NCBI GenBank assembly: GCA_900696615.1
Contig: CAADGS010000116.1
Location: forward strand, 148 to 64,147
Direction: 5' to 3'
DNA from: an uncultured beta proteobacterium
GTDB lineage: Bacteria > Pseudomonadota > Gammaproteobacteria > Burkholderiales > Nitrosomonadaceae
DNA: 64,000 nucleotides
A program made the translations under genes and the position numbers. Below are positions 40,264-47,684 of the stretch, piece by piece. Under the pieces are notes generated by a model. The model had not been told where the DNA came from, did no database searches, and saw nothing but the letters and a program-made list of their open reading frames with translations. How positions within the stretch are numbered: position 1 is the first letter of the stretch; each line of letters begins with the position of its first letter.

Positions 40264-42300
40264 ATGTTTACTTTCATTAGGCATTGTTTATTTCTTTTAC
40301 TGCTATGCCTGGTTAGCGAGCCAGCATTTTCCATCCCGATGCAAGTCCGGTTCAACGATGTCGAATACGATATGACCGTGAGTATTGATCCGGTGAACCG
40401 AGCCCTGATAGGGAAAAGCATCATCACTGTCAAGCATCCAAGAGAATTGCAATTGATGCTTGGCGCTGCTTTTGAGGTGACGCAAGCAATATCCAATGAT
40501 GGACCAATGGGTATTGGCCGTGAGGCATCGAACCAACCGCATGTTTGGAATATACCTGTTGCTTTCAGGCAACAAGTACAATTTGTAATTCATTGGCAAG
40601 GATCGTTGGCACCTTTGGATACTTCACTGGATCATCAACAGACATTGGGTAGACCAATTGCGGTAAGCGGGCAGGCTGGGACCTTTTTGCCTGATGGATC
40701 GAATTGGTATCCGCGTGTAGTAGGCCATCTGGTGCGTTACAAAATCAATATCGAACTGCCGGCCGGCCAGAAAGGTTTGGTAGCGGGCAAATTGATCGAA
40801 GAAAAGGAATCACAACAAGGCTATCAGGCATCGTTTGAGTTTCCAGATCCTACCGAAGGTATCGATTTGATGGCGGGACCTTACGTGGTTGAAACGCAGA
40901 AGTATGAAGGTGTGAAGAACCGGGCAATTCAGTTACGCACGTATTTTCATCCACAAATCAGCGATCTGTCGCGTGATTATTTGGCTTCCGTGAAACGCTA
41001 TTTGGATAAATATGAATCTTGGATTGGCGAGTATCCCTATACTGAATTTAGCATTGTATCGAGTCCGACACCTACAGGGTTCGGTATGCCAACGCTGACA
41101 TACCTAGGAATCGATGTACTCAAATTGCCATTCATTCGCGATACTTCGCTTGGTCATGAAATACTGCATAACTGGTGGGGGAACGGCGTTTATCCGGATT
41201 ATCAGCATGGTAACTGGTCGGAAGGACTGACCACATTCATGGCCGATTATGCCTATAAAGAACAAGAGAGCGATGAGGCGGCGCGCGAGATGCGTCTGGG
41301 GTGGTTACGCGATTTTGCTGCATTGCAATCTGGACAGGATACGCCATTGGCGGCGTTTACATTGCGCACACATGGGGCATCCAAAATCGTTGGTTACAAT
41401 AAAGCAGCCATGTTTTTTTTCATGCTGCGGGATCAATTGGGCGAGGCGGTTTTTCAACGTGCAGTGCAAGGATTATGGAATACCCGGCGATTTAGAATTA
41501 CTTCTTGGCAAGATATCCAAAAAGTATTTGAAATCATTTCCGGACAGCATTTGGATGCATTCTTTACGCAGTGGCTGAATCGCAGCGGTGCCCCCTTTAT
41601 TGTCATCAACGAAGCGAAAAGTATAGGAACTGAATCGGGTTATCAATTAGCTATTACGCTTCAGCAGAGTGAGCCTGCTTATGCGGTGCGTGTACCTATT
41701 GCGATTGAAAGCGAGCAAGGTGTGCATATTCACCGACTTGATTTGCAACAGGCGCAACAGAACTTTACGCTGACGTTACCAGAAAGACCTTTGTCCGTTT
41801 CATTAGATCCCGATTGGCGTTTGTTCCGGCAACTGGCATCCGATGAGGTGCCGCCCATTTTACGTGAAGTGATGGTTAATTCCGCGACGCAAACGGTTAT
41901 ATTGCCGCATCAAGAAGAAGCGCGGAGAGTTGCTGAAATGCTTGCTAGTAAGTTGCAGGATCGAACACCTCAAATCATTTCACCGACTCAACAGATATCC
42001 ACTACGGCCCCGGTTCTGGTCATCGGGCTGCAACCCGATGTCGATACATGGCTTGCAAATCAGCAATTGTCGGCCCGGCCTGATGAAGTCAAGGGAAAAG
42101 GCAGTGCGCAAGCGTGGACCACAAGCCGTCCGCAAGGTGGTTCGCTAGCGATCGTGTCGACTCAGGATGTTGCTGCGATGGAAGATTTGCTGCGTCCATT
42201 GCCGCATTACGGCAAGCAGAGTTATATCGTTTTTGAAGGCCGCCAGGTTGTTGAAAAAGGAATTTGGCAAATACCAATGCAGAAGGTAACGGTTAAGTGA
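40264..42300 (+). CDS. Exported M1-family zinc metallopeptidase
   Basis: Signal peptide. HEILHNWWGN...WSEGLTTF (HExxH-x18-E). Located 23 nt after the ChaN-PDZ gene. Confidence 0.8.
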   Translation: MFTFIRHCLFLLLLCLVSEPAFSIPMQVRFNDVEYDMTVSIDPVNRALIGKSIITVKHPRELQLMLGAAFEVTQAISNDGPMGIGREASNQPHVWNIPVAFRQQVQFVIHWQGSLAPLDTSLDHQQTLGRPIAVSGQAGTFLPDGSNWYPRVVGHLVRYKINIELPAGQKGLVAGKLIEEKESQQGYQASFEFPDPTEGIDLMAGPYVVETQKYEGVKNRAIQLRTYFHPQISDLSRDYLASVKRYLDKYESWIGEYPYTEFSIVSSPTPTGFGMPTLTYLGIDVLKLPFIRDTSLGHEILHNWWGNGVYPDYQHGNWSEGLTTFMADYAYKEQESDEAAREMRLGWLRDFAALQSGQDTPLAAFTLRTHGASKIVGYNKAAMFFFMLRDQLGEAVFQRAVQGLWNTRRFRITSWQDIQKVFEIISGQHLDAFFTQWLNRSGAPFIVINEAKSIGTESGYQLAITLQQSEPAYAVRVPIAIESEQGVHIHRLDLQQAQQNFTLTLPERPLSVSLDPDWRLFRQLASDEVPPILREVMVNSATQTVILPHQEEARRVAEMLASKLQDRTPQIISPTQQISTTAPVLVIGLQPDVDTWLANQQLSARPDEVKGKGSAQAWTTSRPQGGSLAIVSTQDVAAMEDLLRPLPHYGKQSYIVFEGRQVVEKGIWQIPMQKVTVK

Positions 42301-42411
42301 TTGCTGTGTGGAGTGAAGTTGCTTGATATTTTGTTGTATTGTTTAGCTGGATGGTAACGTACCATTAACGTTTTTGTCATTTAATGGATTACACGGCATA
42401 TAGTTTCCACT

Positions 42412-42786
42412 ATGAAAAAAAGAAGATTGATTTTGTTTTTGATGATGTTGATGAGCGCGATCGCGCTTCAAGGCTGCGGGGTAGCGCGGGAACATAGAAT
42501 TCGTCAGGAAGTGTTGGCTGACGCCAGCATGCCGGAAGAAATCCGTAGAGCAATCGATCAAAAAGAATTGGTTGTTGGTATGACACGAGAGCAGGTAATC
42601 GCTTCTTGGGGACTTCCCTGTAAATGGTGTTTTGGAACACGAAAAAGTCCGGGTGGAGATACGTGGGAATATAATCTGTTTGGCTCAGATCTTTGGGTAA
42701 CCGGTTCCGATTTTATTGGCAGCGCAACGGCAATTTATTTGTACTTTGACAGGCATGGATTGCTTAAACACTGGTCCAATAAATAA
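42412..42786 (+). CDS. Small lipoprotein with BamE/SmpA-OmlA-like segment
   Basis: Lipobox IALQGC. VVGMTREQVIASWGLP motif. Confidence 0.55.
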   Translation: MKKRRLILFLMMLMSAIALQGCGVAREHRIRQEVLADASMPEEIRRAIDQKELVVGMTREQVIASWGLPCKWCFGTRKSPGGDTWEYNLFGSDLWVTGSDFIGSATAIYLYFDRHGLLKHWSNK

Positions 42787-42833
42787 GGGTCATGGTTTAC
42801 CAGCGATAATAAGTGTAGTTAGTCAACCGATAC

Positions 42834-44132
42834 TTAGCTAGGTTTGCGCAACAGTTTCTTACTGTCGTCAGATATAACGCTAATTGCTTTATTTCTCAAT
42901 CGCGCTTTGGTGAAGAATTTATAAAAGGTTGGTTCATTGGCTTTTGCAAGTAGTTTGAAAACTTCTTGTTGTGTCATACTGCGTTTTAATTGCAGCAGTA
43001 AAGCGGTGAGTCCGGAAACATGCGCTGTGGCCAGAGAATTGCCCGATACGAAGTCATATGCCCCGTCAGGTAACGTAGTTAGTATGGCCTCACCCGGTGC
43101 GGATAGGACAAGGGCGGGGTCTTCATGACCCGATTGCCCAAATTTTTCACTTATGCTGCGAACGCCGATAACCCCGAGTTGCTGAGCTGGGAAACCGGAT
43201 TTTTCATCATGACTGTCAGCTTGCGAAGCCACGATGATAATTCCCTGTTGAATGGCCTTTTCGATTAATCTAGCTAGAAGCGGGTCGTAAGGCCCGGTTA
43301 AACTTAAATTAAGAATGTCGACTTTCTTTTCAATTGCTGTATTAATGGCTAAAGCTAGTGTAAAGCTATTGCAGACTGCTTCCAGACTATTTGCTTTTAC
43401 ACTCCAGCATGCTTTCAATGAAACGACACGACTATCCGGTGCAATGCCTACGATACCATGCCCGTTATTTGGTTTTGCCGCGATTACACCGGCTATTGCA
43501 GTTCCGTGAATATCAACGGAATCAGTTGATTTCTGCATCACAAAATCTTTGCTCTGATGGATTTGCCCTTTTAAATCAGGGTGATTGATGTCTACCCCGG
43601 TATCGACAATTGCGATGCTAATATTTTTTCCTGTAGATTGGTTGTGTATTTCGGCCAAGTTGATTGAATGTATATTAGTTTGTAGCCGATAATAAGGGTC
43701 GTTATACGTATCGGCCATCACTTTGAAGGTATTCATCGCTTGAACATTACCGATTCGCTCGTCTTGTGACAATGCGGTCATGACATCGGTCAAAGATTCT
43801 TCTTCATCTACTAAATAAACAACACAATGCTCACCAATTTCTTTGATGGGCCATTGGGAAAGAATTTTTAGTTTGTAATCTGTTTCTATGCTGGACGCGA
43901 TTCTTTTACTCCAAGTAGAACTCCCGTAATCGCCTCGACGGCGATATATCTGGTTGGTCATTCCAATTGGAACTTGGTTGATGTGATTGTCAGTGTAGGT
44001 TACTAAAATAATACGTTCTGCGTGCCCGCTATCAAACACCTTGGGATCAACCGATAACTTTTCTTCCGCATGGACAGGAAAGGCAGCAAACATGATCAAT
44101 AGCAAAAAAAGATAAGAACAATAAGCTTTCAT
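42834..44132 (-). CDS. Exported subtilisin-like serine protease (peptidase S8) with N-terminal prodomain
   Basis: Catalytic D (IAIVDTGVD), H (DIHGTAIAGVIAA) and S (SGNSLATAHVSG). Start set to ATG 44132 (MKAYCSYLFLLLIMFAAFPVHA signal peptide). The longer ORF would overlap the anti-sigma gene. Confidence 0.8.
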   Translation of the reverse strand: MKAYCSYLFLLLIMFAAFPVHAEEKLSVDPKVFDSGHAERIILVTYTDNHINQVPIGMTNQIYRRRGDYGSSTWSKRIASSIETDYKLKILSQWPIKEIGEHCVVYLVDEEESLTDVMTALSQDERIGNVQAMNTFKVMADTYNDPYYRLQTNIHSINLAEIHNQSTGKNISIAIVDTGVDINHPDLKGQIHQSKDFVMQKSTDSVDIHGTAIAGVIAAKPNNGHGIVGIAPDSRVVSLKACWSVKANSLEAVCNSFTLALAINTAIEKKVDILNLSLTGPYDPLLARLIEKAIQQGIIIVASQADSHDEKSGFPAQQLGVIGVRSISEKFGQSGHEDPALVLSAPGEAILTTLPDGAYDFVSGNSLATAHVSGLTALLLQLKRSMTQQEVFKLLAKANEPTFYKFFTKARLRNKAISVISDDSKKLLRKPS

Positions 44133-44166
44133 TGAAATGTGAAATACTTGGCAGTTAAATATCATT

Positions 44167-44877
44167 TTAATCAACCGTGGATAATCCATGAGCCAGTTCT
44201 GCAAAAATTACAATTTTGTTGTTACGCAAGTTTGAAATAGCAGTCTTGACTTCCTGTAAACCGGTATGTCCATCACCAATCTGGACTTCATAAACGCCAT
44301 TTTGTAAGGGGCCTTTAACAATTTGACCTGATACGCTATGTAAAGCTGCTGATATATGCTTTGGATTCGCATGCTCGGAAAACACGATACGGATCATATT
44401 GTTTTTTTGTTCACCCTGAACAGGATTGGCAAGCGTTCTATATTCCCCTGTTAAATTAGATTGTTCGATCGATGAAGTTGATAAAAAAGGTAACGCTAAT
44501 AATACTAAGCTTGCAGCCAGAGCAGTAAATTTTATAGCGCTCAAAAATTGCGGGGCAAAAAGTTTGCCTGCGTTGTTTGAACGGGATGATTCGTCTTTCC
44601 GTGCAGTGGGAATAAGCGTATGTTGATTTTCTATCCGCTTCTTCAATTGAGCGAAAGAAACTTGCGATACTTGTTGCAGTAGATCGGTTTGCTGCATTTT
44701 TGCAAGCAGCAGTTTTTGCTGATTGAACTCAAGTCTGCAAGCGATACAATTCTTGAGATGTGCTTTCACAATATCCTGCTCGCTAGGATCTAAAGAGTGA
44801 TTGACATACCAAGGCAAAAGCTTCCAAATCTTTTGATGTTCGCTTTCGCTGCTTGTATTGATATTTGTGGATAACAT
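44167..44877 (-). CDS. Membrane-spanning ZAS-type anti-sigma factor
   Basis: H-x3-C-x2-C (HLKNCIAC) near the N-terminus. One TM segment (FTALAASLVLLALPFL). ~100-aa periplasmic domain. Starts 4 nt after the sigma stop. Confidence 0.75.
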   Translation of the reverse strand: MLSTNINTSSESEHQKIWKLLPWYVNHSLDPSEQDIVKAHLKNCIACRLEFNQQKLLLAKMQQTDLLQQVSQVSFAQLKKRIENQHTLIPTARKDESSRSNNAGKLFAPQFLSAIKFTALAASLVLLALPFLSTSSIEQSNLTGEYRTLANPVQGEQKNNMIRIVFSEHANPKHISAALHSVSGQIVKGPLQNGVYEVQIGDGHTGLQEVKTAISNLRNNKIVIFAELAHGLSTVD

Positions 44878-44881
44878 CTAA

Positions 44882-45493
44882 TTAACCTTTGCCATTATGT
44901 TCATGTAAAAATTGCGCCAAAATTTTTCGTGCGTGAAACATTCTAGTTTTAACAGTATTTTCGGGACATTGCATGATTTCCGAGATTTCATTGTAATGCA
45001 GTCCTTGGAAATATGTCATTTCTACAACAGCTCGCTGTTCGGTTGAAAGTTTGTCGAATGCAACTTGCAACCAATTGCTGACTTCCAGCTCCGATACCCA
45101 GTTAGTACTGCTACTTGGAAAATAATCCAGGTTGTCATCAAATTCATCTGAACGGTCTTCTCTTGTCGAATTTTGTTCGAAACTTTTGATTGATTTCAAG
45201 TATGCAATACCTAAAATCCATGTCGAAGGGCGGCATACTTGGTTATAAGTAGAGGCTTTTTCCCAAACAACAAACATCACGTCATTAATAATTTCCTCAA
45301 TACAGTCGTGATGCCTAACTATATGAAATATAAATTGATAGAGGCGATTATAATAGAGCTGATAAAGTTCTTCAAAAGCTTTCCCATCGCCTCCTGCAGT
45401 GCTTGCGATCAAGCTTCGTTCTTTTTCGTGTTGTTGTTGCGAGCTAAAAATTTTTCGCATTTTTAGCCCTGCCGATTCATGATTTAGTACCAT
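44882..45493 (-). CDS. ECF (group 4) RNA polymerase sigma factor
   Basis: Region 2 (YNRLYQFIF...DVMFVVWEK) and region 4 (LSTEQRAVVEMTYFQGLHYNEISEIMQCPENTVKTRMFHARK). Confidence 0.85.
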   Translation of the reverse strand: MVLNHESAGLKMRKIFSSQQQHEKERSLIASTAGGDGKAFEELYQLYYNRLYQFIFHIVRHHDCIEEIINDVMFVVWEKASTYNQVCRPSTWILGIAYLKSIKSFEQNSTREDRSDEFDDNLDYFPSSSTNWVSELEVSNWLQVAFDKLSTEQRAVVEMTYFQGLHYNEISEIMQCPENTVKTRMFHARKILAQFLHEHNGKG

Positions 45494-45580
45494 AAAAAGC
45501 TAAATTATCCATTTTTTTCAATTCTGCCTGTTTATTCCTGATAGTGTGCAAAAGGTTCATAGCTTAAAAAAACTAAAACA

Positions 45581-46360
45581 TTAGAATCCGACAGTAATGG
45601 AAAATAGCACGCGATTGTCGACAATATGTGGATGAAATCCCCAAGGCTGATATAGCTCTTCGTTTTTATGCGCTGTCGCCGTATGAATGCCGTCATAGTA
45701 ACGCACGTCGACGCCGACGTGACGTGATAGGTGGACGGTTAACCCTGAAGTCCAATAAAGATAGTTGTACTGTAAAACTTGCTTTTGATTGTTGTAACCC
45801 ATGGTGCTTGAAAATTCGATAGATTGTGTAATCGGGTAACGGCCCGTGACTTCGAATCCGTATGCCATATGTTTTTGTTGGTAGCTATCCTCAGAAACAA
45901 AGGCAATGGCTGTAATCAAATCCCGGAAATGGCTGTAAAAATAGAACTCATTGTAATCAGCAACTTGGCCAAATATTTTGCCGTTATAGATGTAGCGGGT
46001 TGCTTCGATATTAAATCGCCAATCTTCAGACAGCTTGTAGGCATAACCTAAATAAGGTCTGAATTCCAAGGTTGAGCGATTTTCGAATCCATGATCGCCG
46101 AAGTTAACCGTTGATCCAAATGAGCCAAAGTAAATACCCGACTTAAATTCATAATCAATATTGGCTTGTGCTGCAGGTTTTTCATCACTTCTCGAGTAGC
46201 CGCGCCAGAAGTAATCCGTTGTACCTGTCAAACTGCCGCGCAGTTCCGCATGACATAGAAACGGAAATGCAAACATAAGTGCGGTCCACCACAAAAGTTT
46301 CTTGTACCAGCCGGCAATGCAAGGATTTGTTCTCCGCCAATACATGCAATGAGTAATCAT
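45581..46360 (-). CDS. Outer-membrane beta-barrel protein of the TIGR02001-like family
   Basis: Signal peptide ...FPFLCHA/E. TDYFWRGYSRSDEKPAAQANIDYEFKSGIYFGSF motif. C-terminal ...LFSITVGF. True start is uncertain. Confidence 0.65.
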   Translation of the reverse strand: MITHCMYWRRTNPCIAGWYKKLLWWTALMFAFPFLCHAELRGSLTGTTDYFWRGYSRSDEKPAAQANIDYEFKSGIYFGSFGSTVNFGDHGFENRSTLEFRPYLGYAYKLSEDWRFNIEATRYIYNGKIFGQVADYNEFYFYSHFRDLITAIAFVSEDSYQQKHMAYGFEVTGRYPITQSIEFSSTMGYNNQKQVLQYNYLYWTSGLTVHLSRHVGVDVRYYDGIHTATAHKNEELYQPWGFHPHIVDNRVLFSITVGF

Positions 46361-46901
46361 TAAAAAATTATCACTGTAATGAGTAAATTAGAAAAACCAT
46401 TAATAATCAATATGGTTGATTTCCCTTGTTATATAAAGCAGTTGTTCTAAAATCTTAAGTCGGTATAAAAACTAAATTTCTAATCAGTCGCTGAGAAAAT
46501 TTAATGACTATCAGTAAGATGCTTTAACTGTTGAACCTTTTTTCATTCTGACAGAATTTACTTGCAGCTATTTTGGAAATAGAAACACTAAAACTAGTTA
46601 TAAAGGGGAAATAGAAATGAAGATGTTATATGTCAAACTGCAGGTAAATGTTTATCTTATTTCATCAACGGTTAGGTTAAAGTCGGAAAGTGGATTAGGC
46701 GGAACTGGCTGAGTTTAGTTGATACAAATAATCATTGTCAACGTTGTGGGATTGGTTGGTGAAGTTAAATGATTTTCTAGAAGATATTGTGTATCCATAT
46801 TACTCATTCTGAGAACTGGCTTGGCGATCAAATCAATTGATTTTTACATCATAAAGTATATATTTTGATTATCGCTGAAATTTTCTGAGTATATTGGAAT
46901 T

Positions 46902-47684
46902 ATGGAAACCTATGATGCTTTAATTGCGACACTTGCGTTAATGATGGGAGTCTCCTGGGCCAGTGGCATTAATCTCTATGCTGCATTGTTTGTGCTGGGA
47001 TGGGGTGGAGCGGCTGGTCACATAGTTTTACCCGATGAACTGACAGTATTGCAAGATCCACTGGTAATTGGCGCGGCCGCTATCATGTATTTGATAGAAT
47101 TTTTTGTTGATAAGATACCGGGAATGGATTCGTTATGGGATTCCATACATACGTTTATTCGTATCCCAGCGGGCGCGATGCTGGCAGCGGGTGCGGTGGG
47201 CGATGTAACGCCAGCTTTGGAAATTGCCGCAGGTGTATTGGGTGGCGGTATCGCAGCAACCAGTCATGTCACAAAAGCCGGGACGCGGTTGCTAATTAAT
47301 ACATCTCCTGAGCCTGTCACAAATTGGTCAGCGTCTCTCAGCGGAGACCTGTTAGTGCTTTCTGGGTTATGGGCGGCGTTAAAACATCCGGAAATTTTTT
47401 TGGTGCTATTTATCGTTTTTATAGGGATTGCCATCTGGGCACTTCCAAAATTATGGCTTTTAATCAAAGGAATGCTGGTACGAATAGGCAGATTTTTCGG
47501 TATTGCGCAAACTCATCCCAGTTCGACTCAGAATGTTCCGGTTGCTGATATCGCCGAGTTGAACGAAAATGTTCAAATAACGGCTCTTGAAAGATTGCAG
47601 CGACTGCGCGATAAGGGGGTGCTAACAGAGCAGGAATTCGAGCAGCAAAAAAGCCAAATTTTGAAAAGTAATCAGCCTAATTAA
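46902..47684 (+). CDS. DUF4126 membrane protein fused to a C-terminal SHOCT domain
   Basis: Gly/Ala-rich TM segments. C-terminal LERLQRLRDKGVLTEQEFEQQKSQIL is a SHOCT-type short oligomerisation motif. Confidence 0.7.
   Translation: METYDALIATLALMMGVSWASGINLYAALFVLGWGGAAGHIVLPDELTVLQDPLVIGAAAIMYLIEFFVDKIPGMDSLWDSIHTFIRIPAGAMLAAGAVGDVTPALEIAAGVLGGGIAATSHVTKAGTRLLINTSPEPVTNWSASLSGDLLVLSGLWAALKHPEIFLVLFIVFIGIAIWALPKLWLLIKGMLVRIGRFFGIAQTHPSSTQNVPVADIAELNENVQITALERLQRLRDKGVLTEQEFEQQKSQILKSNQPN

Follow-up and report, generated by a model that had tools for sequence, protein, structure and literature searches.

Among alternative sigma factors, those of the ECF type form the largest family and, to our knowledge, the input mechanism is unknown for most of the ECF groups. 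The locus that is described here raises the question of what a secreted serine protease does when it is encoded directly beside an ECF sigma factor and its anti-sigma factor, i.e., whether it is the regulated output of the sigma factor, a part of the signalling cascade that acts on the anti-sigma factor, or both. We attempted to answer this using the window, which is the whole 64,000-nucleotide stretch that was analysed, and a comparison with 80 related loci from Nitrosomonas, Methylococcales, other Gammaproteobacteria and Acidobacteriota.

Gene content of the locus

The original prediction described four minus-strand genes in a row, which encode an outer-membrane barrel, an ECF sigma factor, a ZAS anti-sigma factor and an exported subtilase, and all four open reading frames were confirmed. 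The first encodes a porin of the TorF family (TIGR02001/Gcw_chp outer-membrane barrel; 45581..46360), which scored 85.2 bits against a cut-off of 47.15 and also matched Pfam Gcw_chp (PF09694) with 56.8 bits against 24. The second encodes the sigma factor (203 aa; 44882..45493), which matched Sigma70_r2 (27.3 bits; cut-off of 24), Sigma70_r4_2 (54.5; 25.7) and TIGR02937 (68.8; 42.9). With a length of about 200 aa and only the sigma2 and sigma4 regions, it is, by its domain composition, an ECF (group IV) member of the sigma-70 family. None of the NCBIfam equivalogs reached its cut-off for this protein, the best being PRK12515 with 117 bits against 236.

The anti-sigma factor (236 aa, single-pass; 44167..44877, minus strand) starts 4 nt after the sigma stop. 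It matched zf-HC2 (PF13490) with 24.9 bits against a cut-off of 22.2, and this domain was found in all 68 members of its family. The zinc-binding motif (44737..44838, minus strand) consists of H14, H40, C44 and C47, which are invariant in 68/68 members; residues 40-47, HLKNCIAC, supply the H40-x3-C44-x2-C47 part. Based on the motif, its place in the N-terminal domain and the position beside a sigma gene, the protein is classified as a class I anti-sigma factor of the ZAS/zf-HC2 type.

The fourth gene encodes an S8 pro-subtilase that is predicted to be exported (432 aa; 42834..44132, minus strand), and its ATG at 44132, which opens a signal peptide, lies 34 nt after the anti-sigma stop. A longer reading frame from a TTG at 44204 was rejected, as the tblastn alignments with homologues start at the first residue of the protein read from 44132. 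The protein matched Peptidase_S8 (PF00082) with 125 bits; its best NCBIfam match, the mycosin family (TIGR03921, type VII secretion protease), was also rejected, as the 154.2 bits are below the cut-off of 278.75. The signal peptide is followed by the protease's own prodomain (residues 41-138) and by a catalytic domain with D177, H209, N275 and S366. The Asp-His-Ser order together with the oxyanion Asn places the protein, at the sequence level, in peptidase family S8, and the triad and N275 were invariant in 61/61 homologues. The best structural match of its model was unautoprocessed pro-subtilisin E (371 columns, Foldseek E 4e-22), and the model was aligned with fervidolysin over 426 columns. 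The intact catalytic residues and the pro-subtilisin-like model suggest that S8 is a working zymogen.

Conservation of the module

The conservation of the S8 gene beside orthologous sigma/anti-sigma pairs, on which the original prediction depended, was observed in 76 of the 80 related loci, where it lies on the same strand directly 3' of the anti-sigma gene; this corresponds to 76 of the 78 informative loci. Two of the four exceptions are uninformative and two, L032 and L073, have the sigma/anti-sigma pair with no S8 gene downstream, which counts against the mechanism that we favour below. The recurrence of the sigma/anti-sigma/S8 order on one strand in 76/80 loci from several phyla is far beyond chance. 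The gaps between the anti-sigma and S8 genes in the 76 loci lie between -4 and +44 nt apart from one of 104 nt, and in 28 of these loci the anti-sigma stop and the S8 start overlap by 1 or 4 nt, a count that depends on the start codons that were chosen here. In addition, a relative was encoded in 435 of the 490 matched stretches from species-representative genomes.

Clustering of the neighbouring genes over the loci showed that only the sigma factor, anti-sigma factor, S8 and porin are conserved; no RseB-like partner is encoded near the module. A porin homologue was found in 54/80 loci, directly adjacent in 51 of them, and was restricted to Proteobacteria (0/9 Acidobacteriota loci).

No published description of this module was found within the literature searched, and it is apparently undescribed. 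Like the ECF groups of Casas-Pastor et al. (2021; PMC7826278), it combines a class I zinc-finger anti-sigma factor at position +1 with the type of conserved neighbourhood by which such groups are defined. In the main text of that reclassification, the words peptidase, subtilisin and subtilase are absent and protease occurs once in an unrelated sense; the groups are described in its supplements, which may already list the sigma group of this module as having an S8 neighbour.

Promoter and candidate regulon

An exact match to an ECF-type promoter pattern, TGAACC-N16-GAATA, was found at 45533..45559 (minus strand), 40 nt 5' of the sigma ATG. It consists of a -35 element, TGAACC(T)TTT, and a -10 element, GAATA(AAC), with a 16-nt gap after TGAACC, and with 35.3 bits it is the best-scoring site of the genome. 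The motif was present 5' of the sigma gene in 56/74 loci using a strict regular expression and in 65/73 loci at a PWM score of at least 17 bits, the matrix having been trained on these same sites. As this conserved promoter lies immediately 5' of the sigma gene, the core of the locus is, as far as the DNA can tell, a three-gene autoregulated ECF module that consists of the sigma factor, the anti-sigma factor and S8. The same promoter separates the porin from the other genes, and the proposal that all four form one unit had to be abandoned. The idea of an ECF-type promoter that is shared by the sigma and outer-membrane protein genes held for the sigma gene, but none of the 49 adjacent porins has a same-strand copy upstream. 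Lying 5' of and outside the sigma promoter, the TorF-like porin is probably a proteobacterial accessory partner. The suggestion that S8 is a regulated output was borne out, because the gene lies 3' of the conserved autoregulatory promoter.

Portions of the S8, anti-sigma and sigma genes are covered by metatranscriptome contigs, one of which spans the sigma/anti-sigma junction and another the stretch from the anti-sigma stop to the S8 start, although such contigs indicate neither the strand nor a single transcript and DNA can occur in RNA libraries.

A second, divergent copy of the promoter (46532..46558, plus strand; one pattern mismatch, 20.9 bits) lies 169 nt 5' of the porin start and is directed away from the porin; an equivalent motif was found in 25 of the 49 loci with an adjacent porin. 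Downstream of it is a 31-codon open reading frame (46617..46712, plus strand), whose G-L-G-G-T-G terminus is preserved via synonymous changes in related Nitrosomonas loci. Metatranscriptome contigs, which do not give the strand, span 46587-46827 around it. Two further copies of the promoter, distant in the genome, precede genes for an exported protein of about 110 aa and a DUF1611-like protein. The divergent and the two distant copies probably mark additional genes of the regulon.

The anti-sigma factor and its periplasmic domain

The anti-sigma factor is predicted to consist of the cytoplasmic ZAS domain, a transmembrane helix, a linker and a periplasmic domain. The helix (residues about 116-134; 44476..44532, minus strand) was placed using a helix in the AF2 model (118-132) and a hydrophobic stretch in the sequence. 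The juxtamembrane linker contains the motif Y-R-T-L-A (44428..44442, minus strand), which lies within a disordered stretch of low pLDDT. Its family pattern is an aromatic residue, R/H/Q, T, L and S/A, with the aromatic residue and T conserved in 68/68 members and L in 65/68. The motif is a candidate for the site at which a site-1 protease, which could be S8, recognises or cuts the protein. Moreover, the genome encodes an RseP homologue (401.7 bits, above the cut-off). The modelled single-pass topology and this RseP are the prerequisites for control by regulated intramembrane proteolysis of the RseA/RsiW type.

The periplasmic domain (residues 161-228; 44194..44397, minus strand) was modelled with a pLDDT above 90 as a beta-alpha-beta-beta-alpha-beta fold of the PF22148 kind. 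PF22148, the Fervidolysin N-terminal prodomain, matched this domain in 25 of the 68 family members (E<=0.05; best E 8.5e-6), e.g., in P0098 with 26.2 bits against a cut-off of 21. The anti-sigma factor of the window itself had no match to PF22148 even at E<=10, and the link is therefore one at the family level. A profile of the domain (A4) retrieved 3717 cluster representatives at E<=1e-3, and when eight of the 150 listed representatives were scanned against Pfam, six matched PF22148, three of them with 40-46 bits. The same profile found nothing relevant among the PDB sequences (best E 0.44, an unrelated protein). Structurally, the four best rows of the VIA-align search were subtilisin propeptides (1scj_B, 1spb_P, 3cnq_P and 3whi_B) with Z-scores of 8.1-8.5; 1scj_B and 1spb_P reached 8.5 over 68 aligned residues and 3whi_B 8.1 with an rmsd of 2.4. 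The FtsX periplasmic, NapD, ACT and NikR domains, which share the ferredoxin-like fold, were within 1 Z of the propeptides. In Foldseek, propeptides had the highest target TM-score with the domain model, 0.68, with every E-value at 0.009 or worse, and the Site-one protease entry 8uwc was among the weak rows. Between the domain and the own prodomain of S8, BLASTP found nothing and hhalign gave a probability of 40% over 24 columns. In the model, the domain superposes on solved propeptides and thus has the fold of a subtilase prodomain (PF22148; I9-like). This suggests that the C-terminal domain of the anti-sigma factor is subtilase-prodomain-like, with the propeptides ranked first but tied with other ferredoxin-like folds. 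Because of this likeness, the proposal that S8 acts on the periplasmic domain gains specific support.

A sceptical reading of the same data is that S8 is nothing more than the principal product under the control of the sigma factor, processing, e.g., exported proteins or peptides of the regulon, among which the small ones could be its substrates, while the periplasmic domain senses something unrelated and resembles a prodomain only through a common ferredoxin-like fold. The position of S8 downstream of the autoregulatory promoter, the fold matches that do not discriminate, the empty PDB profile search and the lack of a PF22148 match in the anti-sigma factor of the window agree with it. We consider this reading improbable, as the PF22148 matches in 25/68 members and the 40-46 bits in the profile-found relatives are signals at the level of sequence rather than fold. 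Furthermore, the anti-sigma family remains paired with S8 in 76 of the 78 informative loci, although these span several phyla and differ in their other neighbours, and this is hard to explain without an interaction between S8 and the anti-sigma factor.

The domain of the window's anti-sigma factor is followed by a free C-terminal tail of eight residues. Cleaved prodomains and I9 inhibitors bound to a subtilase, as in subtilisin-propeptide complexes, show the same arrangement. This geometry, with the domain at the extreme C-terminus, would also fit a role as a second, trans-acting prodomain that holds S8 inactive at the inner membrane, with the release of S8 as the output and that of the sigma factor as a by-product. 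In the family, however, the tails past a conserved Glu vary in sequence and in length (2-24 residues, most 8-16), S8 already has its own prodomain, and the conserved zinc anti-sigma domain and the autoregulatory promoter indicate that transcription control is central; we regard this as the least probable of the explanations.

Proposed mechanism

The explanation that we prefer, to which we assign somewhat less than an even chance, is that S8 docks onto the prodomain-like domain and, acting as the site-1 protease, cleaves the anti-sigma factor ahead of RseP. The anti-sigma factor would keep the sigma factor bound through its cytoplasmic zinc-binding domain, cross the inner membrane once and display the domain that resembles an inhibitory prodomain in the periplasm. 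S8, which would come from the same transcript, would be exported in zymogen form, with a prodomain of its own that it sheds on maturation. The prodomain-binding face and the active site of the mature enzyme would then dock on the domain of the anti-sigma factor, and S8 would either degrade this domain or cut the invariant aromatic-x-T-L-(S/A) linker motif, which would be the site-1 cut. The short stub would become a substrate of the site-2 protease RseP, and the released sigma factor would use TGAACC-N16-GAATA to transcribe its own operon and the few other genes that have this promoter, i.e., the divergent small open reading frame, the exported protein of about 110 aa and the DUF1611-like protein. 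The input signal would be whatever governs the maturation or access of S8. We infer the binding, the cleavage and the direction of the effect. Two further considerations speak against this mechanism: a protease that destroys the anti-sigma factor of its own operon creates a positive loop, which requires a gate, and the translational coupling points to a partner made in stoichiometric amounts more than to an enzyme.

Subtilase prodomains and I9 inhibitors bind the mature enzyme tightly, and the synteny and the domain evidence would equally fit a scheme in which S8 is the sensed component and makes no cut. Mature S8 would bind the domain and shield the anti-sigma factor from a different, DegS/DegP- or Prc-like site-1 protease; once substrates draw S8 away, or S8 is lost or not matured, the anti-sigma factor would be degraded and the sigma factor would replenish S8 in a homeostatic negative loop. 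Such a loop would be dynamically steadier than a self-destroying one, and the stop/start overlap in 28/76 loci suggests the stoichiometric co-production that it implies. A precedent, in which a partner shields an anti-sigma factor from proteolysis, is reported for TonB-dependent transducers (PMC11637429). The invariant catalytic residues of S8 (61/61) do not discriminate here, as other substrates would need them anyway, and the invariant linker motif would require another protease, none of which is conserved among the neighbours. We consider the shielding scheme rather unlikely, though the strongest competitor to cleavage by S8.

Relation to known systems and significance

Regulated intramembrane proteolysis of ECF anti-sigma factors is established for sigmaE-RseA of E. 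coli, with DegS (site 1) and RseP (site 2), and for sigmaW-RsiW of B. subtilis, with PrsW and RasP. The module shares with them a single-pass anti-sigma factor with cytoplasmic sigma-binding and extracytoplasmic domains, an autoregulated operon and a genomic RseP, and the logic by which a periplasmic cut licenses the site-2 protease is proposed here from the sequence. It differs in that the candidate site-1 protease is an operon-encoded subtilase (S8) and not DegS (S1C), PrsW, a signal peptidase or a Prc-type protease, and in that the sensor domain of the anti-sigma factor resembles the prodomain of the candidate protease's own family. The beta-alpha-beta-beta-alpha-beta fold with a free C-terminal tail is shared with subtilisin propeptides and MEROPS I9 inhibitors (the BPN'/E propeptide, Tk-propeptide and POIA1). 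Unlike the propeptides, the domain belongs to a protein other than the protease, being C-terminal on a membrane-anchored anti-sigma factor, while S8 keeps a separate prodomain to which it is weakly alike in sequence.

In eukaryotes, SREBP and ATF6 are cut by the Site-1 protease (S1P/MBTPS1), a subtilisin/kexin-type S8 enzyme, and then by the Site-2 protease, a relative of RseP. If the favoured mechanism holds, the two would be alike in that a luminal or periplasmic cut by a subtilase licenses an S2P-family protease and a transcription regulator is freed; they would differ in that an anti-sigma factor takes the place of the membrane-bound transcription factor as the substrate here, and in the recognition via a prodomain-like fold, and the comparison implies homology only for the protease families, not for the pathways. 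A bacterial S1P/S2P-like logic, in which the subtilase recognises a prodomain decoy on the anti-sigma factor and cuts aromatic-x-T-L-(S/A), RseP frees the sigma factor and the state of the periplasmic protease (matured, free or busy) is the signal, is offered tentatively, as a possibility that we rate below the docking and cleavage as such.

The sequence yields a concrete, testable wiring in which an operon-encoded protease is combined with an anti-sigma domain that mimics the inhibitor of the protease's family, and the conserved promoter and the small regulon (the exported protein of about 110 aa, the 31-codon open reading frame and the DUF1611-like protein) are ready reporters. If true, regulated intramembrane proteolysis would gain a novel kind of site-1 protease and, in the prodomain decoy, a novel principle of recognition. 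The wiring would also represent a widespread, hitherto undescribed class of ECF signal input, with a domain profile that reaches thousands of relatives in public data, and would provide a handle on an envelope regulon that is common to ammonia oxidisers and methanotrophs.

The sigma/anti-sigma/S8 module and its conservation

Based on ORF calls and family scores, four minus-strand genes were confirmed where they had been predicted: a TorF-family porin (45581-46360; TIGR02001 85.2 bits against a cut-off of 47.15, Gcw_chp 56.8 bits), an ECF sigma factor (44882-45493; Sigma70_r2, Sigma70_r4_2 and TIGR02937 all over their cut-offs), a zf-HC2 anti-sigma factor beginning 4 nt beyond the sigma stop (44167-44877; zf-HC2 24.9 bits) and a subtilase with an N-terminal signal peptide, S8, whose ATG lies 34 nt past the anti-sigma stop (42834-44132; Peptidase_S8 125 bits). 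The window belongs to a Nitrosomonas genome: the closest anti-sigma homologues were all from Nitrosomonas, and the nearest locus was that of a Nitrosomonas MAG. Convergent with S8 is a short ORF (42412-42786, plus strand) whose 124-aa product looks like a lipoprotein; its BamE-domain match was weak and under the cut-off. In an Rfam scan of window positions 42300-47000, nothing matched at E <= 1.

Searching one genome per species for a pattern taken from the N-terminal part of the anti-sigma factor gave 490 matching stretches, 435 of which encoded a relative, and the best 80 of these 435 were taken with 6 kb flanks for the analysis of synteny. These loci belong to Nitrosomonas and one other betaproteobacterium (27), to Methylococcales and other Gammaproteobacteria, and to the Acidobacteriota (9; Thermoanaerobaculia, Holophagales and unclassified). 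Among them are Methylomonas, Methylomicrobium and Methylobacter strains (L029, L035, L036 and L039-L043) and the Nitrosomonas cluster-6a isolates N. oligotropha Nm45 (L020) and N. ureae Nm13 (L008). Using tblastn with the four proteins of the window and ORF calling, sigma, anti-sigma and S8 were found in that order and on the same strand in 76 of the 80 loci. The absence of S8 beside orthologous sigma/anti-sigma pairs, which had been named as an observation that would speak against the linkage, was clearly not what was found. There were two true exceptions: a Methylococcaceae locus (L032) with a convergent methyltransferase gene where S8 was expected, and a Thermoanaerobaculia locus (L073) with no S8 within 4.3 kb. 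The remaining two loci were uninformative and were not counted as exceptions, as the contig ends inside the anti-sigma gene in L080 and a run of N follows soon after it in L065. In the 76 loci, the gap between anti-sigma and S8 ranged from -4 to +44 nt, with a single case of 104 nt, and the two genes overlapped by 1 or 4 nt in 28 of them, given the start codons that we chose. Of the four S8 genes in the genome of the window, the other three have no sigma factor linked to them.

When every ORF with 90 or more codons from the window and the 80 loci was clustered, anti-sigma, sigma, S8 and the porin were the only widely conserved families; the next one was found in only 10 loci. A porin homologue was detected in 54 of the 80 loci, in 51 of which it immediately precedes sigma in the same orientation, and tblastn found none in the nine Acidobacteriota loci. 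The porin is a proteobacterial accessory that lies outside the universal core.

The promoter and its regulon

An ECF-type promoter motif that reads TGAACC(T)TTT and GAATA(AAC), with a 16-nt gap after TGAACC, is located at 45533-45559 on the minus strand, with the sigma ATG 40 nt downstream of it. The motif was found upstream of sigma in 56 of 74 loci using a strict regular expression and in 65 of 73 at >=17 bits using a matrix that had been trained on these same sites, and its range extends from Nitrosomonas to the Acidobacteriota. Because the motif sits between the porin and sigma, the autoregulated unit consists of sigma, anti-sigma and S8. The original prediction of a single four-gene unit therefore holds for these three genes and fails for the porin, which is outside the promoter-defined unit. 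An ECF-type promoter shared by sigma and the outer membrane protein was found for sigma only: none of the 49 adjacent porins was preceded on its own strand by a motif of >=17 bits in the 400 nt before it, and the porin was rejected as a regulon member.

A divergent copy of the motif, which faces away from the porin, was present in 25 of the 49 loci with an adjacent porin, and the window has one too (46532-46558, plus strand, 20.9 bits). Downstream of the copy in the window, a Shine-Dalgarno-like sequence is followed by a 31-codon ORF (46617-46712, plus strand). Eight related Nitrosomonas loci preserve its start (M-K-x-x-Y) and its end (G-x-G-G-T-G-stop), the third codon positions there having changed synonymously. 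Metatranscriptome contigs from three runs cover just 46587-46827, and one of them, with a depth of 21, came from a small-RNA library. This stretch (46532-46830) may encode a sigma-dependent small peptide or a short RNA. In other lineages, as named from translations, a glycosyltransferase-like gene is located behind the divergent promoter in two Methylococcaceae loci (L026, ~4245, and L028, ~4341, both minus strand), an exported repeat protein in two gammaproteobacterial loci (L069, ~4260, and L074, ~4240, both minus strand) and a Ser-rich exported protein in two Methylomicrobium loci (L029 and L041). The periphery of the regulon seems to vary by lineage.

Scanning the genome of the window with the matrix gave three sites of >=24 bits, one of which was a training site, compared to none in ten Markov-simulated genomes; at >=17 bits, there were six sites compared to 1-5 (mean 2.6) in the ten simulations. 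The site at window position 42362 (plus strand), just upstream of the ORF at 42412-42786, scored 17.0 bits, which is at chance level, and was dismissed as noise, as was a site of 17.7 bits inside a 676-codon ORF on contig C89. A motif of 24.9 bits precedes the gene of an exported 131-aa protein on contig C146 (1169-1564 of the piece L081), which has ~110 mature residues, two cysteines and no Pfam family. Its homologues were found beside the module in seven loci (L004, L005, L006, L013, L022, L023 and L080) and in four Methylococcales loci (L045, L046, L051 and L062), sometimes as two tandem copies in Nitrosomonas and Methylococcales; the alignment of the L013 copy is broken in two, suggestive of a frameshift. 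This exported protein may be a substrate of the system or an effector in it. A motif of 24.3 bits precedes the gene of a 387-aa protein on contig C156 (1249-2412 of the piece L082), which had no Pfam match and was DUF1611-like in the protein atlas (feature score 0.98, TM 0.86), and four other Nitrosomonas loci (L004, L007, L010 and L030) have a homologous gene close to the module. For both of these remote proteins, the atlas look-ups returned only 'hypothetical' and DUF1611-like leads. The motif also precedes several of the module-adjacent homologues of these two genes, and this agreement between motif and homologue placement across genomes supports a real, small regulon.

Expression of the locus

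Portions of all four genes are covered, at >=95% identity, by metatranscriptome contigs from four runs of two wastewater/bioreactor studies; one contig (44760-44974) spans the sigma/anti-sigma junction and another (44122-44283) runs from anti-sigma over its stop to the S8 start. Such contigs give neither strand, ends, levels nor proof of a single transcript, and RNA libraries may hold DNA; they lend weak support to expression of the locus in situ. The stretch 45283-45910 had no contig in any of the four runs, which carries no meaning for expression.

A prodomain-like domain in the anti-sigma factor

The C-terminal part of a distant anti-sigma homologue (P0098) matched PF22148, the fervidolysin N-terminal prodomain, with 26.2 bits against a cut-off of 21; in two further homologues (P0101 and P0103) the matches were under the cut-off, and the Pfam scan of the anti-sigma factor of the window gave no PF22148 match. 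In an alignment of 68 members of the anti-sigma family, zf-HC2 was detected in all 68 and PF22148 in 25 (E <= 0.05; best 8.5e-6). When a profile of the C-terminal domain (81 positions) was searched against 1.84 billion proteins, 3717 cluster representatives passed E <= 1e-3, and 766 of them also E <= 1e-10; among the 150 matches listed, most measured 220-260 aa and carried the domain at their C-terminus. PF22148 was found in six of eight such matches that were scanned with Pfam, with strong scores in three of the six (P0165 45.7, P0155 43.4 and P0252 40.2 bits). At the sequence level, the domain family is thus linked transitively to PF22148. Two of these proteins, P0155 (1093 aa) and P0252 (512 aa), carry four or five tandem prodomain-like domains and no other Pfam family, an architecture unlike that of anti-sigma factors and unlike that of proteases.

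The AF2 model of the anti-sigma factor, which was based on the 68-sequence alignment, has a helical cytoplasmic domain, a membrane helix (118-132), a disordered linker and a beta-alpha-beta-beta-alpha-beta domain at residues 161-228 with pLDDT above 90. Foldseek matches of this domain had E-values of 0.009 or worse, and among them a subtilisin propeptide had the highest target TM-score (0.68) and the lowest rmsd. In VIA-align, the top four rows were subtilisin propeptides or pro-subtilisin (Z 8.1-8.5), and the PC1/3 prodomain, the Tk-propeptide and POIA1 were also among the matches. The fold alone does not settle the prodomain reading, because other ferredoxin-like domains (the FtsX periplasmic domain, NapD, ACT and NikR) scored within 1 Z of the propeptides; it is the sequence-level PF22148 signal that makes this reading credible. 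Comparing the domain profile with PDB sequences returned nothing relevant, which counts against it.

We rejected the possibility that the domain is a copy of the prodomain of the neighbouring S8. The best BLASTP hit between the two proteins had 15.4 bits (E 1.9), hhalign aligned only helix 2 and strand 4 of the domain with the S8 N-terminal region (24 columns, 40% probability), and none of the 61 S8 proteins matched a prodomain Pfam family. Since no close likeness was found, the domain is called prodomain-like.

The S8 protease and a candidate cut site

All 61 aligned S8 members share, without variation, the catalytic triad (Asp177, His209 and Ser366), the oxyanion residue Asn275 and two cysteines, C242 and C254. 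In the AF2 model, S8 has its own beta-alpha-beta-beta-alpha-beta prodomain (41-138), a low-confidence junction (143-153) and then the catalytic domain. The top Foldseek matches were full-length pro-forms, led by unautoprocessed pro-subtilisin E (371 columns, E 4e-22), with fervidolysin (426 columns), ProN-Tk-SP and pro-Tk-subtilisin among the further ones, which, as judged from the models, makes S8 an ordinary zymogen-type subtilase. On the modelled structures, the anti-sigma factor would offer S8 a second prodomain-like domain in trans, and the two proteins are probably functionally coupled directly through it. It is quite unlikely that S8 is solely an output of the sigma factor, a role with which its place in the autoregulated unit would agree and with which a prodomain-like domain in its anti-sigma partner would not.

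Between the membrane helix and the domain, the anti-sigma family carries a motif that consists of an aromatic residue (68/68), T (68/68), L (65/68) and then S or A, which is Y-R-T-L-A in the window. It is as conserved as the zinc ligands and is located within a low-confidence AF2 stretch. Subtilisin-type clefts would be well suited to a bulky hydrophobic P1 residue and an aromatic P4 residue, and the motif is a candidate cut site. A Y-R cleavage motif common to this linker and the S8 prodomain loop was considered and rejected, as the loop is missing in the Acidobacteriota S8s, while the motif is universal in the anti-sigma family.

Prodomains are known to be degraded by the enzyme that they belong to. 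Together with the invariance of the linker motif and of the catalytic residues, this is why we give the most weight to the reading in which S8 cuts the anti-sigma factor as its site-1 protease, which nevertheless stays tentative. Binding of S8 could instead shield the anti-sigma factor and close a homeostatic loop, which we regard as rather unlikely. That the domain acts as a tethered inhibitor of S8 is very improbable. In the site-1 reading, a cut at the linker motif would leave a short stub for RseP, a homologue of which is encoded in the genome (401.7 bits).

Relation to known systems

The proposed working logic is like that of the regulated intramembrane proteolysis of RseA and RsiW. Judging by its genes, this locus would differ in that the operon encodes a dedicated subtilase and that the sensor resembles a prodomain. 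The eukaryotic S1P/S2P pair is the closest analogy in logic. Among the papers that our literature searches returned, none describes an ECF anti-sigma factor that carries a subtilase prodomain or is paired with its own S8. The words 'peptidase', 'subtilisin' and 'subtilase' do not occur in the main text of the ECF reclassification of 2021 (PMC7826278), and the supplements of that paper, which hold the neighbourhoods of each group, may include this one. What the locus adds is a promoter with a cross-genome regulon, a porin that stands outside the promoter-defined unit and an invariant linker motif as the candidate site at which the anti-sigma factor may be cut.
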